Positions 18-23,476 of a stretch of DNA of 23,585 nucleotides are shown here, piece after piece. This stretch comes from a virus. Lineage: Duplodnaviria; Heunggongvirae; Uroviricota; Caudoviricetes. The first letter of the stretch is position 1; every line of letters starts with the position of its first letter. Made by a program: the position numbers and the translations under genes. Under the pieces are notes generated by a model. The model was not told the origin of the DNA. It did not search any database and saw only the letters and a list, made by a program, of their open reading frames with translations. The DNA is taken from the IMG/VR virus record IMGVR_UViG_2565956613_000007; one strand, written 5' to 3'.

Positions 18-43
18 TTCTCTTAAACCAAGGTTTAGGATTG
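18..43. other. cix-type crossover site for the Cin invertase (26 bp, imperfect dyad TTCTCTTAAACC-AA-GGTTTAGGATTG)
   Basis: Seen in sequence: the core AAACCAAGGTTT and the flanking half-sites match the hix/gix/cix family of invertase crossover sites as I remember them. It overlaps the last three codons and stop of the invertase gene. Bases 1..17 would then lie inside the invertible segment. Confidence 0.6.
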
Positions 44-595
44 AAATGATGACGCCGGAAACTTCTTATAAAGCGTGGAAACAGCCACATCATAGATGAT
101 TGCAACCTGCTTACGGGGGATGCCCTTCTCGAGCAATCGCCGCATTTGCTGCCATGTTTCTTCTTGGTATTTAGGCCGACGTCCACCTATACGACCTTCT
201 GCGCGAGCTGCATCAAGTCCAGCGCGTGTACGTTCAACGATAAGCTCACGTTCCATTTCTGCCAGCGCCCCCATTACGTGAAAGAAAAAGCGCCCCATTG
301 GTGTACTGGTGTCGATGGAGTCAGTGAGACTCCGGAAGTTAATGCCTCTGTCACGCAGCTCTTCCACCAGCACAACTAAGTGACGCATGCTGCGCCCAAG
401 ACGATCTAACTTCCATACGACTAGGGTGTCACCTCTGGAAAGCATACGGAGAACCTTTTTTAACCCAGGGCGTTCAGCCTTTTTGCCGCTCGCCTTGTCC
501 TCAAAAATTAGCTCACATCCTGCGCTTTCAAGAGCGTTTCGTTGTAAAGCAGTGTTTTGTTCATTTGTTGATACGCGTACATAGCCTATTAGCAT
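35..595 (-). CDS. cin: Serine-recombinase DNA invertase, Hin/Gin/Cin/Pin family (186 aa)
   Basis: ATG at 595. N-terminus MLIGYVRVSTNEQN carries the catalytic serine in the VRVST motif; the C-terminus has the helix-turn-helix GIPRKQVAIIYDVAVSTLYKK. Near-colinear with Gin of Mu from memory. The symbol cin is inferred from the P1-like context and the adjacent cix-like site. Confidence 0.88.
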   Translation of the reverse strand: MLIGYVRVSTNEQNTALQRNALESAGCELIFEDKASGKKAERPGLKKVLRMLSRGDTLVVWKLDRLGRSMRHLVVLVEELRDRGINFRSLTDSIDTSTPMGRFFFHVMGALAEMERELIVERTRAGLDAARAEGRIGGRRPKYQEETWQQMRRLLEKGIPRKQVAIIYDVAVSTLYKKFPASSFQS

Positions 596-722: not shown

Positions 723-1004
723 ATGTGTGATTTCACAATAATGCTCCTCTCCATCCTTGGCGGGGTGCATTCGTTTCTGAATGGGGTTCGTGAAAAACGT
801 TACGAAGCGTCATGCAGGCAATTGATGGCCGAGTGTATTGCTGCCGTACTTGCAGGCTTTATAGGCATGTATTTCGCGGAATATAAGGGTATGGATGAAA
901 GTCTTCAGAATTGCGTGACTATTATTTGCAGCATCAATAACAGGCTCATTCTTGAAAAGTTACAAAGGATTATCGATTCGTACCTCAATAGAAATGCCTC
1001 TTAA
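723..1004 (+). CDS. Small hydrophobic protein (93 aa), possible membrane or lysis-associated protein
   Basis: ATG preceded by AAGGAAAT at a sensible spacing; hydrophobic stretches LLSILGGVHSFL and IAAVLAGFIGMYF. Sits between the invertase and the holin gene. Function not recognised. Confidence 0.45.
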   Translation: MCDFTIMLLSILGGVHSFLNGVREKRYEASCRQLMAECIAAVLAGFIGMYFAEYKGMDESLQNCVTIICSINNRLILEKLQRIIDSYLNRNAS

Positions 1005-1071
1005 GCAACAAATGACCGGTTGAGAAGTTACTTTGCATACCATTACCTCCTGACAACGTAGGAGGGAACTT

Positions 1072-1401
1072 GTGCTTGACACACAGGAATTAGCTCCAGT
1101 TGCTATTGCGCTCCTGCTTTCAGTAATTGGTGGGATAGGCACGTTCCTGATGGATGTCCGAGACGGTCGCCAGTCTGGCAATTTGTTGGGATTGGTTACG
1201 GAGATCTTTGTTGCAGTGACAGCTGGCGCGGTGGCGTACCTATTGGGGCAACACGAGGGCTGGGAGTTATCAATTACGTACTTAATGGTAACGATAGCCA
1301 GCAATAACGGTCATGAGGTGATTTCAGGGATGAAACGAGTGAATATCGATAGCATTCTGAATGTTCTTACAAGTTTGGTGAAAAAGGGAGGCGGGAAATG
1401 A
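1072..1401 (+). CDS. lydA: Holin-like membrane protein (109 aa)
   Basis: GTG start 6 nt downstream of GGAGGG. Hydrophobic segments (VAIALLLSVIGGIGTFL, IFVAVTAGAVAYLLG) and a charged C-terminus. Position immediately upstream of the Dar operon matches my memory of P1 lydA; the symbol rests on synteny. Confidence 0.6.
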   Translation: MLDTQELAPVAIALLLSVIGGIGTFLMDVRDGRQSGNLLGLVTEIFVAVTAGAVAYLLGQHEGWELSITYLMVTIASNNGHEVISGMKRVNIDSILNVLTSLVKKGGGK

Positions 1402-1841
1402 TTGGCTGGGGTGTATGCGTTCTTGCGTTAGCCTTAGCCGATCGCTATTTGCTAAAACGCAAGGACATCACGCATTTAGAACTTGGTGATGTGGAAATTA
1501 AACCGGGTTTCATCCGGGTGCCGTTCAAGTACCGGTCTAAATTCCCGTTTTTGCGCGGCGCAACGGTCAGATATTGGATCCGCGATGTTCAGAAGCCGAC
1601 GACAGTGATTGAAGGTGAACAACGTTGTCTGACGTCGGCTGAACAGGGCGAAAACAGTGAATGGTTGTACATACCCACTGAATATATGGGTAAAGGAGAG
1701 CGACTGTGGCATTTCAACGTCATGGTTACGCATGGCGACTCGTTCATTAACCCGTTGTATCGGATTTTCCCTGTTACTCAGCAAATCCGCAGAAGTTACG
1801 TAATAAATCTCGCACAGGATGTGTCAGATGACGAAAAATAA
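1398..1841 (+). CDS. lydB: Antiholin-like protein (147 aa)
   Basis: ATG overlaps the lydA stop (ATGA) with GGAGG 7 nt upstream, so it is translationally coupled to the holin. Symbol by synteny with P1 as I recall it. Confidence 0.55.
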   Translation: MIGWGVCVLALALADRYLLKRKDITHLELGDVEIKPGFIRVPFKYRSKFPFLRGATVRYWIRDVQKPTTVIEGEQRCLTSAEQGENSEWLYIPTEYMGKGERLWHFNVMVTHGDSFINPLYRIFPVTQQIRRSYVINLAQDVSDDEK

Positions 1842-2430
1842 GTATGCAACGGTCGATTTTGACCAGGTTAATGAAAAGGGGCTGAAATCCCTTATCGCGG
1901 CGATCAATAAAACCGGTGTTACGGTAATTGAGGTTGACTCCAGCAACCGCGCAACAACGAAAGATGGCGTTAAAGTTAAAACCGCAAAGCTGGTTCTTAA
2001 CGACGGACAAATTCTTGCCATACAGGTAAACGATACTGGCGATATATCGTCTGTGAAGCTGAATGGAAAAGCTATTCCTAACGCTCAGTCGCCGGATATC
2101 AAGACGCTTGGTACCGTCATGGGACAGGCGGCCCGCAAAAACTCCGCAAAATTCCAGAAATCACTGATCGCCAAAGCGAAGCGTGTTGCCAATCCGGTAG
2201 ACAAGAAACCGGCAGTTAAATCCAACTTTCAGCGCCTGCAAGAAGCAAAACAGCGGAATGCTCAGGTGGTTGCCGCTTATAAGTCCGCGCAGAATTCGGT
2301 GTCTTTCAATCAACAGCAGATCACTGATTTGCGGGCGAAGCTGGATAAGGAGACGGGCCGACTCAATAACGAAAAGGCACGGAATGGCGAACTCAAACGT
2401 CGTCTTAAGCAACTGAAAGCAGGAAATTAA
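1828..2430 (+). CDS. hdf: Hdf, DarA-related protein of the Dar antirestriction operon (about 200 aa)
   Basis: Preferred start ATG 1828 (AGGA 8 nt upstream) rather than the track start 1819. Shares the heptapeptide KNSAKFQ and a similar basic, K/A-rich context with the next ORF (darA), consistent with Hdf being a homolog of a DarA fragment. Confidence 0.6.
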   Translation: MTKNKYATVDFDQVNEKGLKSLIAAINKTGVTVIEVDSSNRATTKDGVKVKTAKLVLNDGQILAIQVNDTGDISSVKLNGKAIPNAQSPDIKTLGTVMGQAARKNSAKFQKSLIAKAKRVANPVDKKPAVKSNFQRLQEAKQRNAQVVAAYKSAQNSVSFNQQQITDLRAKLDKETGRLNNEKARNGELKRRLKQLKAGN

Positions 2431-2431
2431 C

Positions 2432-4351
2432 ATGGAACAGTTCAATATCAATAAAGGGGTGACGATCAAGCCTGGGCTTGACGTGCTTCCCCCGCCAGTG
2501 ACTGATGATGAATATCGCGCATTAATGGCCGGTGAGGACCGCTATCTGATGACGGAATCCAACACCCTGGAGGAAATCGAGGCTACGTTCTTCTATGACA
2601 CGCCGATCCACTGGTGTGCTACGGATTTACTGGAGGCGATTAGTTCTACTCGTTTGCAGTTACACCGGACCATGCAGGCATTTGTCCGGGCATTGAACCA
2701 GAAGCTGAATGGTACCGGAATCTCTGCGGGGAGTGATAAAACGGGGGATGTGGCCCAGAGCGGCGCGCGCGCGATCGGCGGCGCTGAAATTGGCCGGGCA
2801 CGTAACGTTAACGGGCTGCCGGTCCTGCCAGCCATTATTCCGCTCAGTGATGGTCAGACTATCAGCATTCTGTTTCATAGCCCGACAGCGGAAAACCGGA
2901 TCACCAATAGCGATACGCTGGTTGCTTTCCAGTTCTTACTGAATAAAAAAGACGTTACTCACACCGTTGCTCCGATGAGTGGACGTGATATGACGCTGGC
3001 GCAGGTCACCATGAAACTTGCCAACCTTGCAGAGAAAAACTCGGCAAAATTCCAGCGTGCGCAGAAGAAGAAAAAAGCCCTTGTTGATGAAATAACCCAA
3101 CTACAGGCTGACAGTGACCAGAAAGAGGATGCCATGAGCGACCTCGCGGATCAGGTGGCAGCGGTAGAAGGGCAGAAGGCAGATCTGGAGCAGAAAATTA
3201 ACGCTGTTGCATCGGAAGCGGATTCTCTTTATGAAGAGAATGAGCGTTTGCAGACGGAGATTGATCAGCTCAATCGCACTGGTGGGCGCGATACCATTGC
3301 TCCAGCGGGGATGACTGGTGGGCACTCTCGCGCGCTGACGGATCGCCTTGCCAGTATCAAAAATCGTATGCATATGAACGGGGAAGTGACGCTCAGTAAT
3401 GGAGCATCAATGAAGCAATTCATTGAGGACGGCGAAGGGTATATCCAGTTAACCGATTCGGATGGCAGCGTGTACATGATCAAGGCTAAATCCATACAGG
3501 GTGTGGACATGGCAGATGCGATCGGCAAGCTGTTTAAAGCCTATAAAGCGGGTAATGTATCGGAATATCTGGTCCAACCAGAAGAACATAAACCGGAAAA
3601 CGTCGAACCTGAACCAGCGGAGGATACCGGTAGCTCTTCGCCTGAACCAGAAGTCTCTGTAGGTGCATATCGATATGCCTTGCAAATGCGTCCGGCGGCC
3701 CCTGGCGCAATACCTGAAGGTAACAAAGCAATTCTGCCGCGCCCTGATGAAGGTGACCCGTATTATGAATATGCACGCTACGGCATTGCTACTTACGATA
3801 CCCCGCTTTCTGATCAGCAAATGAGTGAGTACGACCTGAAGTTATTGCCTCGCGAGGATTCTTTCGACTTCCTGGCGAAGACACTTACTAATGGTCCGTT
3901 TGGCAAATATGCACAAAAAGCTCTGGATCTGGCCACCAGCTCACCAGACGAGTTCCGCGTAATGCTGAAAACTCAGTTTCAAAAAACTTTCCCCAATATT
4001 GCGTTTCCGGGGGGCGCAGGCACCGAGAAAATGGTGCAGAGCATGATCAATGCATTGCAGGCCGAAGTCGGTGAGATTACTCAGCCAGAACCTGCCCCGG
4101 CACAGCCTGATGAAACGGTTAGCGAAGCAGATGCAGAGGCTAATAAAGCCATTGAATATCTCAATAACGTGATGGATATGCAAAGCACTGACATGGCGGA
4201 GATCCGTAACGCCCGGGGTAATGTCCGGGAAGCGATTGCAGCCCTTCAGGCTGCCGGGCGTTTTGAGGAAAACGAAGAGCTGGTTAATGGCGCTGCTCGC
4301 CACCTGGCTGATCTGCTGGTAGCAATCCAGAAAGCGGGGGTAGCGGCATGA
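2432..4351 (+). CDS. darA: DarA-like virion antirestriction/head morphogenesis protein (639 aa)
   Basis: AGGA 8 nt upstream of the ATG. Size and position (hdf-darA-ddrA-ddrB order) match the P1 dar operon as I recall it. Contains coiled-coil-like segments (QLQADSDQKEDAMSDLADQVAAVEGQKADLEQKINAV). Confidence 0.68.
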   Translation: MEQFNINKGVTIKPGLDVLPPPVTDDEYRALMAGEDRYLMTESNTLEEIEATFFYDTPIHWCATDLLEAISSTRLQLHRTMQAFVRALNQKLNGTGISAGSDKTGDVAQSGARAIGGAEIGRARNVNGLPVLPAIIPLSDGQTISILFHSPTAENRITNSDTLVAFQFLLNKKDVTHTVAPMSGRDMTLAQVTMKLANLAEKNSAKFQRAQKKKKALVDEITQLQADSDQKEDAMSDLADQVAAVEGQKADLEQKINAVASEADSLYEENERLQTEIDQLNRTGGRDTIAPAGMTGGHSRALTDRLASIKNRMHMNGEVTLSNGASMKQFIEDGEGYIQLTDSDGSVYMIKAKSIQGVDMADAIGKLFKAYKAGNVSEYLVQPEEHKPENVEPEPAEDTGSSSPEPEVSVGAYRYALQMRPAAPGAIPEGNKAILPRPDEGDPYYEYARYGIATYDTPLSDQQMSEYDLKLLPREDSFDFLAKTLTNGPFGKYAQKALDLATSSPDEFRVMLKTQFQKTFPNIAFPGGAGTEKMVQSMINALQAEVGEITQPEPAPAQPDETVSEADAEANKAIEYLNNVMDMQSTDMAEIRNARGNVREAIAALQAAGRFEENEELVNGAARHLADLLVAIQKAGVAA

Positions 4352-10220: not shown

Positions 10221-10237
10221 AAATTAATTAGAGCAAT
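10221..10237 (-). promoter_or_regulatory. C1 repressor operator-like 17-mer (16 of 17 match to the consensus ATTGCTCTAATAAATTT as I recall it)
   Basis: Seen in sequence: the minus strand reads ATTGCTCTAATTAATTT, located 20 to 36 bp upstream of the ssb start in the ssb/lyz divergent region. Confidence 0.5.
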
Positions 10238-23459: not shown

Positions 23460-23476
23460 GTTGCTCTAATAAATTT
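23460..23476 (+). promoter_or_regulatory. C1 repressor operator-like 17-mer (16 of 17 match to ATTGCTCTAATAAATTT)
   Basis: Seen in sequence: gTTGCTCTAATAAATTT in the AT-rich region at the right end of the window, presumably controlling a gene beyond the window edge or the divergent region. Confidence 0.5.

Follow-up and report, generated by a model that had tools for sequence, protein, structure and literature searches.

Genes and promoters at the lydA locus

The window analysed here is a continuous stretch of 23,585 nucleotides from a tailed phage (IMG/VR record IMGVR_UViG_2565956613_000007), and its bases 700-1500 are those of phage P1 (AF234172, NC_005856) and close relatives, with 99.8-99.9% identity. 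The minus-strand gene cin is followed on the plus strand by lydC, lydA, lydB, hdf and darA (Table 1). Both LydA and LydC match Pfam family PF16083 (the LydA holin family), and LydB matches PF16084. The lydA gene starts with the GTG at 1072-1074, and the annotated start codon is supported by the presence of an ATG at the same position in SJ46-type relatives (such as L013). In this model temperate phage LydA is the main holin, and even its leaky expression is lethal; cloned lydA or lydC has been reported to be lethal (Bednarek et al. 2022, PMC9025707).

Table 1. Positions of genes and sequence features in the lydA region (window coordinates unless a related locus is named)
Feature	Position	Strand	Basis
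cin	35-595	-	ORF and P1 annotation
lydC, holin-like	723-1004	+	ORF, Pfam PF16083, annotation
Spacer between lydC and LPdar, intrinsic terminator not found	1005-1024	+	terminator scan, homology
LPdar '-22' box AAGTTACTT, 9-bp inverted repeat, Lpa site	1025-1033	+	GenBank annotation, PMC10695390
LPdar -10 hexamer TACCAT	1038-1043	+	GenBank annotation
Hairpin 5' arm, anti-SD CCUCCUG	1046-1052	+	sequence, folding
Late lydA/dar mRNA start (inferred)	1050-1052	+	promoter geometry
Hairpin loop ACAACG	1053-1058	+	folding
Hairpin 3' arm UAGGAGG, including SD AGGAGG (1060-1065)	1059-1065	+	sequence, folding
lydA, holin, 109 aa, GTG start	1072-1401	+	ORF, Pfam PF16083, P1 annotation
lydB, LydA antagonist	1398-1841	+	ORF, PF16084, annotation; start overlaps lydA stop
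hdf	1819-2430	+	ORF and annotation
darA	2432-4351	+	ORF and annotation
Terminators GCGCC-NNNG-GGCGC, then T-run	L109 544-569; L113 524-553; L111 and L112, ~90 nt upstream of lydA		

The lydC gene has been described as a monocistronic early operon that immediately precedes the late dar operon (Bednarek et al. 2022, PMC9025707). It is co-directional with lydA, its stop codon (1002-1004) lies 42 nt 5' of the stem described below, and a terminator scan from lydC to lydA returned no terminator-like site; a sigma-70 promoter-like site is present at 568-595. Published P1 RNA-seq tables place the rise of lydA mainly late, with a log2 fold change of 5.2 at 10 min and 11.8 at 30 min in the P1vir table, which has no row for lydC and therefore cannot show read-through. 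CRISPRi roadblocks at lydC gave no plaque phenotype, whereas the knock-down of lydB gave one (PMC10695390), and this contrast is consistent with the late promoter LPdar, and not read-through, being the functional source of LydA and LydB. In P7 a C1 operator, Op(lydC), is predicted before lydC, and none lies near lydC in P1. Matches to the C1 operator consensus ATTGCTCTAATAAATTT with one mismatch are located at 10221-10237 (minus strand) and 23460-23476 (plus strand), and one of these two is likely the annotated Ossb operator.

The Lpa-dependent promoter LPdar is annotated over the hairpin site in three independent GenBank records, which are those of P1 (AF234172), the P1 darA operon (AJ000741) and P7 (AF503408). 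The 9-bp Lpa site, an inverted repeat, is present in all 11 P1 late promoters (PMC10695390), and the box-N4-TAnnnT geometry of LPdar recurs in LPpro and LPlyz, which are the only other late promoters that AF234172 annotates across the stretch matched by the window. Only 2 nt separate the end of the LPdar hexamer from the 5' arm of the hairpin. Bases 7-9 after the hexamer are 1050-1052, and if the box centre (1029) is set at -22, +1 falls at 1051; we infer from this geometry that late transcription starts at about 1050-1052, where the anti-SD arm ends. A late lydA mRNA with such a start would lack the anti-SD and would be unable to form the hairpin. A start 2-3 nt after a -10 hexamer is not credible for the sigma-70 holoenzyme, and the 5' ends of P1 late transcripts were reportedly mapped by Guidolin et al. 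in 1989; the full-text literature within reach, to which key older P1 papers do not belong, yielded neither the lydA hairpin nor a mapped P1 late 5' end.

Folding of the lydA ribosome-binding site

The earlier note had proposed that CCTCCT (1046-1051) pairs with AGGAGG (1060-1065), the Shine-Dalgarno (SD) sequence of the GTG-started lydA, and both the pairing and the identity of the SD, which stands 6 nt from the GTG, are borne out by reading of the sequence and by folding. ViennaRNA adds a G1052-U1059 wobble pair, which extends the stem to 7 bp and leaves a loop of 6 nt (ACAACG). At 37 C the hairpin by itself is predicted at -10.7 kcal/mol, and in a 61-nt context the minimum free energy (MFE) is -16 kcal/mol, with z = -2.6. 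The window contains a single instance of CCTCCT-N3-12-AGGAGG, none of 100 dinucleotide-preserving shuffles has one, and a chance origin of the hairpin is unlikely. Among the 19 annotated genes of the window, lydA has the ribosome-binding site (RBS) with the highest predicted opening energy (15.45 kcal/mol in a -100 to +80 context), and the next three genes follow at 13.6, 13.4 and 13.1 kcal/mol; lydA thus heads a continuum of RBS occlusion and is no extreme outlier.

The consequences of the stem differ between RNAs that read through from upstream and RNAs that start near the predicted late start. In folded read-through RNAs, with 5' ends at 602, 900, 1000, 1044 or 1046 and 3' ends from 1090 to 1401, all six SD bases are paired with 1046-1051 at a probability of at least 0.96, and opening of 1058-1077 is predicted to cost 12-17 kcal/mol. 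RNAs whose 5' end falls at 1049-1053 are unable to form the hairpin, and their predicted cost is 6.9-11.7 kcal/mol, varying with the 3' end. The predicted gap between the two classes is only about 3-6 kcal/mol, again dependent on the 3' end, and is not all-or-none. The SD of the late RNA is not simply free, and depending on the 3' end it finds weaker partners at 1069-1073, at 1094-1097 or in CUCCU at 1111-1115. In silico replacement or scrambling of 1046-1051 in a read-through RNA lowered the opening energy from 13.4 to 7.2-12.2 kcal/mol, the value for AAAAAA being 8.1 kcal/mol. Kinetics should favour a transcript-specific effect, because the anti-SD is already present as the SD of a read-through RNA emerges; in the late RNA, about 9 nt would precede the SD, whose partners would be made later and then cleared by translating ribosomes.

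Several further structures were seen at the same site. CUCCUGC at 1111-1117 (plus strand), which encodes Leu-Leu in lydA, pairs with the SD at a probability of about 1.0 in the RNA 1051-1120, and this partner makes the idea of a free SD in the late mRNA less clear-cut. The MFE structure contains a second small hairpin, CUUGUG/CACAGG, around the GUG start (1069-1087, plus strand), which is present in read-through and late RNAs. The Salmonella pCFSAN001636 lineage retains the corresponding CTTGTG...CACAGG stem and JK004 a part of it (TGTG...CACA), but the 3' arm of the stem is constrained by Thr-Gln codons. On the minus strand, at 1036-1051, the palindrome also provides AGGAGG, a 7-nt spacer and an ATG (1038..1036), the first codon of a 17-codon ORF, MQSNFSTGHLLLKRHFY, that runs antisense to LPdar; no supporting evidence for this ORF was found, and we treated it as a by-product of the palindrome.

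Distribution of the hairpin and other forms of insulation

The sequence from the Lpa box through lydA forms an invariant block, with the anti-SD arm kept, in all elements whose LydA identity is at least 95%, a set of 20 phage records, 81 IMG/VR or GTDB loci and several hundred plasmids. A scan of genome contigs returned one locus only, at 99% identity. The carriers are P1-, P7- and SJ46-type elements that are about 100% identical in the block, and the stem is identical in them apart from single variants; covariation analysis is therefore impossible and lends the hairpin no support. The single natural variants (L056, SJ46 and L074) are informative only anecdotally: A1045C in the IMG/VR locus L056 adds a C-G pair and brings the stem to -14.3 kcal/mol, and the change in L074 falls in the spacer between the SD and the start codon.

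A mosaic junction lies just 5' of the Lpa box, at about 1012-1024. Homology to P7, RCS47 and Ro157c2YLVW starts at 1012-1015, the sequences diverge upstream of about 1022, and four upstream contexts are joined to the same LPdar-lydA module. At least three strongly divergent lydC alleles (the 93-, 87- and 94-aa types) precede the invariant module, and some contexts have no lydC. In one IMG/VR locus (L085, IMGVR_UViG_2597489893_000001, positions 1-60) similarity to P1 stops at the base before CCTCCT, at the boundary of GCAGGTCA and CCTCCTGACAACG, and unrelated sequence takes the place of LPdar; the site is at a contig end, and an insertion, a rearrangement or an assembly artefact could account for it.

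The earlier note regarded absence of the complementary arm from close relatives as evidence against the hairpin, and here the outcome is mixed: the arm is kept at LydA identities of at least 95% and is missing at about 73% and about 43%. The P1 anti-SD is absent from JK004- and D6-type relatives. In D6-type elements, as in two Escherichia/Shigella plasmids, cin is divergent from lydA, so that no transcription reads into lydA. Canonical intrinsic terminators stand just 5' of lydA in Leclercia and Serratia plasmids, which have no anti-SD, and by eye an intrinsic terminator is also present 5' of lydA in Pantoea plasmids. The GCGCC-NNNG-GGCGC terminators (Table 1) sit between a tail-fibre-assembly gene and lydA, and P1 has none at the equivalent place. 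Enterobacter p60214CZ_1 possesses an anti-SD of its own, CCCTTCT, which directly follows a TAAGTT box, pairs with AGGAGGG at a probability of 0.95 and is located upstream of the expected late start, inside the promoter region; similar local pairing of the SD was found in a Citrobacter plasmid.

The JK004/Salmonella lineage (about 73% LydA identity) is a counter-example, having a co-directional cin homologue upstream, with neither a predicted terminator nor a local anti-SD found there. An insulating hairpin at lydA is thus no universal requirement, given these JK004-type relatives that do without the device. Visual inspection had suggested a long-range anti-SD in this lineage, in which ACTTACCTT or GCTTACCCT, located 5' of the Lpa box, would covary with the SDs GAGGTGAGT and GGGGGGAGC; this candidate was dropped because partition-function folding pairs these SDs with the coding region at +29 to +38, and because two members (L102 and L096) break the proposed pairs. 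Over this small and phylogenetically uncontrolled sample, there seem to be several ways in which the need for insulation of lydA is met.

Other local structures were noted in distant relatives. In phage D6 (L005), the region that separates cin from the divergent lydA contains a strong hairpin, TCCCCCCTT-N7-AAGGGGGGA, which adjoins the cin start codon at about 1397-1421. In the Pantoea alvi-type loci L104, L105 and L106, the SD GGAG is followed by its complement GGAGTAACTCC before the GTG (-14 to -2 of lydA), which places the SD-pairing element downstream of the SD and not upstream of it. In addition, the late promoter of L104 and L105 lies entirely between the arms of a 6-bp stem, CCCTGA/TCAGGG, and L106 reads CCCAGA in place of CCCTGA.

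Proposed role of the hairpin and comparison with known systems

Our preferred reading, held with moderate confidence, is that the hairpin serves as a transcript-specific translational insulator of the lydA holin gene. RNA that reads through from upstream, for which the early lydC operon is the main candidate and to which any other transcription crossing cin-lydC would be equivalent, would carry both arms. The 7-bp hairpin would form in it once the SD is transcribed and would block 30S binding, and the lethal holin would be made neither early nor in the prophage state. When Lpa-activated RNA polymerase starts at LPdar, the late mRNA would come without the anti-SD and would expose AGGAGG for the translation of LydA. 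As a possible secondary effect, untranslated lydA RNA may be exposed to Rho-dependent polarity, which would also lower the expression of lydB and the dar genes from read-through RNA. The silencing is most likely confined to stray read-through RNA of upstream origin, and the hairpin is probably better called a safety device against upstream transcription than a throttle of lysis timing.

This account retains some of the earlier note and departs from it elsewhere. The predicted occlusion of the RBS stands for RNAs that contain both arms and probably does not extend to the late holin mRNA. The suggestion that the hairpin restrains lysis timing is at odds with the position of the LPdar -10 hexamer at 1038-1043, given which the late lydA mRNA would lack the anti-SD. 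The other suggestion, that lydA translation depends on upstream events, comes closer if it is read as dependence on which promoter made the RNA; coupling to the translation of lydC is unlikely, given the 42 nt that separate the lydC stop from the stem downstream.

We consider it possible, but rather doubtful, that in P1 and its phage-plasmid relatives the promoter-embedded anti-SD works as an insulator at two levels, by a block of lydA initiation and by Rho polarity, and thereby, with no terminator, disconnects the lydA-lydB-hdf-darA operon from an early lydC cassette that is hypervariable and exchanged freely. If this were true, lydC alleles could be swapped at the mosaic junction 5' of the Lpa box at no risk, and the lydA hairpin would be the first device of the T4 gene e type in a temperate, sigma-70/Lpa-dependent phage and the first that guards a holin.

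Among the alternatives, the one that survives best, which we nevertheless hold to be unlikely, is that the complementarity is fortuitous, 1046-1051 being the C/T-rich discriminator and initially transcribed region of LPdar and its match to the SD unselected. A purine-rich SD easily meets a pyrimidine-rich partner, and opening energies of at least 13 kcal/mol are also predicted for several other genes of the window; moreover, the carriers are near-identical and offer no covariation, and the nearest divergent lineages lack the arm. Against an unselected match stand the perfect 6+6 pairing with a short loop, which the shuffles never produced, and a simple estimate of about 10 positions x 4^-6, or about 0.002 per AGGAGG. 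The match is located exactly where silencing would be of most use, at a lethal holin gene downstream of an unterminated early gene, and the natural variant L056 extends the stem and does not erode it.

A role in lysis timing proper, in which the hairpin would be part of the functional late lydA mRNA and would throttle translation of the holin, is improbable. In its favour, lysis timing is known to depend on holin dosage, an RNA with both arms has its whole SD occluded by a stable hairpin, and GUG initiation together with the start-codon hairpin points to deliberately weak translation. Such a throttle, however, needs transcription to start at or before 1046, only 2-3 nt past the hexamer, which goes against sigma-70 geometry and the very name of the '-22' box, and RNAs starting at 1049-1053 cannot form the stem.

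There is very little to recommend a DNA-level role, in which the palindrome CCTCCT-N8-AGGAGG would be the site of a dimeric regulator that represses late transcription or stands in its way as a roadblock: the inverted repeat is a perfect one (6-8-6) and spans about -5 to +15 of LPdar, but it has no second copy in the 23.6-kb window, it resembles neither the Lpa box nor the C1 operator, and one of its halves is fully explained as the lydA SD. Identity with a C1 operator was rejected, since the matches to that operator lie elsewhere. Equally remote is some other RNA role, as a 5'-terminal stabilising stem, a lydC terminator or attenuator, an RNA thermometer or an element of translational coupling to lydC; stem-loops near 5' ends or between genes often have such roles, but a stabilising stem would need a start at or before 1046, the predicted energy changes gradually (-12.1, -10.7, -9.6 and -7.9 kcal/mol at 30, 37, 42 and 50 C) with the structure unchanged, which is not the behaviour of a ROSE- or fourU-like thermometer, the stem is followed by GAACUUGUG and not by the U-run of a Rho-independent terminator (the scan being blank at 1040-1075), the lydC stop falls 42 nt before the stem and not within or adjoining it, and Rfam 15 covariance models gave no match at E<=1 on either strand of 600-1500.

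The proposed transcript-specific occlusion of the lydA RBS has a close parallel in T4. Early and middle read-through transcripts of the T4 genes e, soc, 49 and I-TevI form an RBS-sequestering hairpin, and late promoters located within the 5' strand of the hairpin give rise to late transcripts that lack this strand and are translated (reviewed in PMC3014915). As at gene e, which encodes lysozyme, an SD-occluding hairpin has a late promoter at its 5' strand (in P1 by annotation), and the gene that is protected in T4, and would be in P1, is a lysis gene whose expression too early would do harm. When the elements of the gene e arrangement are sought in P1, the hairpin is present as a 7-bp stem (1046-1052/1059-1065) of -10.7 kcal/mol, and the annotated geometry of LPdar predicts a +1 at 1050-1052. 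Upstream lies a co-directional early gene, lydC, with a promoter-like site at 568-595 and no terminator found, and evidence of read-through RNA was likewise not found. Differential translation is suggested by the predicted opening energies of 12-17 kcal/mol for read-through and 6.9-11.7 kcal/mol for late RNA. We regard the P1 lydA hairpin as likely to be a further case of the T4 e-type, transcript-specific RBS occlusion.

The two systems also differ. T4 late promoters consist of TATAAATA and are used with gp55/gp33, whereas LPdar combines a sigma-70 -10 hexamer with an Lpa box and is used with host SspA. The T4 e hairpin protects an endolysin and that of P1 would protect a holin. P1, unlike T4, is temperate, and silencing is also needed in the prophage state. 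There is no sequence homology between the two hairpins; the energy difference in P1 is modest, and the P1 device is known from predictions.

More distant likenesses exist as well. The RBS hairpins of mobE of Aeromonas phage Aeh1 and of other homing-endonuclease genes (cited in PMC3014915) are local and limit a potentially harmful embedded or downstream gene, but they act on endonucleases, and relief by an internal late promoter has been shown for some of them only. In the Leclercia, Serratia and Pantoea plasmids, the lydA-lydB-dar operon is isolated from co-directional upstream genes at the same site, 5' of the late promoter, as is proposed for P1, but by terminators that act on transcription and not on translation, and the anti-SD is absent.

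The hairpin is a tidy regulatory detail and opens no long-standing question. It also has practical implications, in that P1 lydA constructs that include 1046-1051 would remain silent in translation and those beginning after 1051 would be toxic. In the accessible papers we found no explanation of how P1 tolerates an unterminated early lydC directly before lydA, and a T4 e-type device would provide one. Such a device would carry the logic of a late promoter inside an RBS hairpin over to a different late-transcription system, from the virulent T-even phages to a plasmid prophage.
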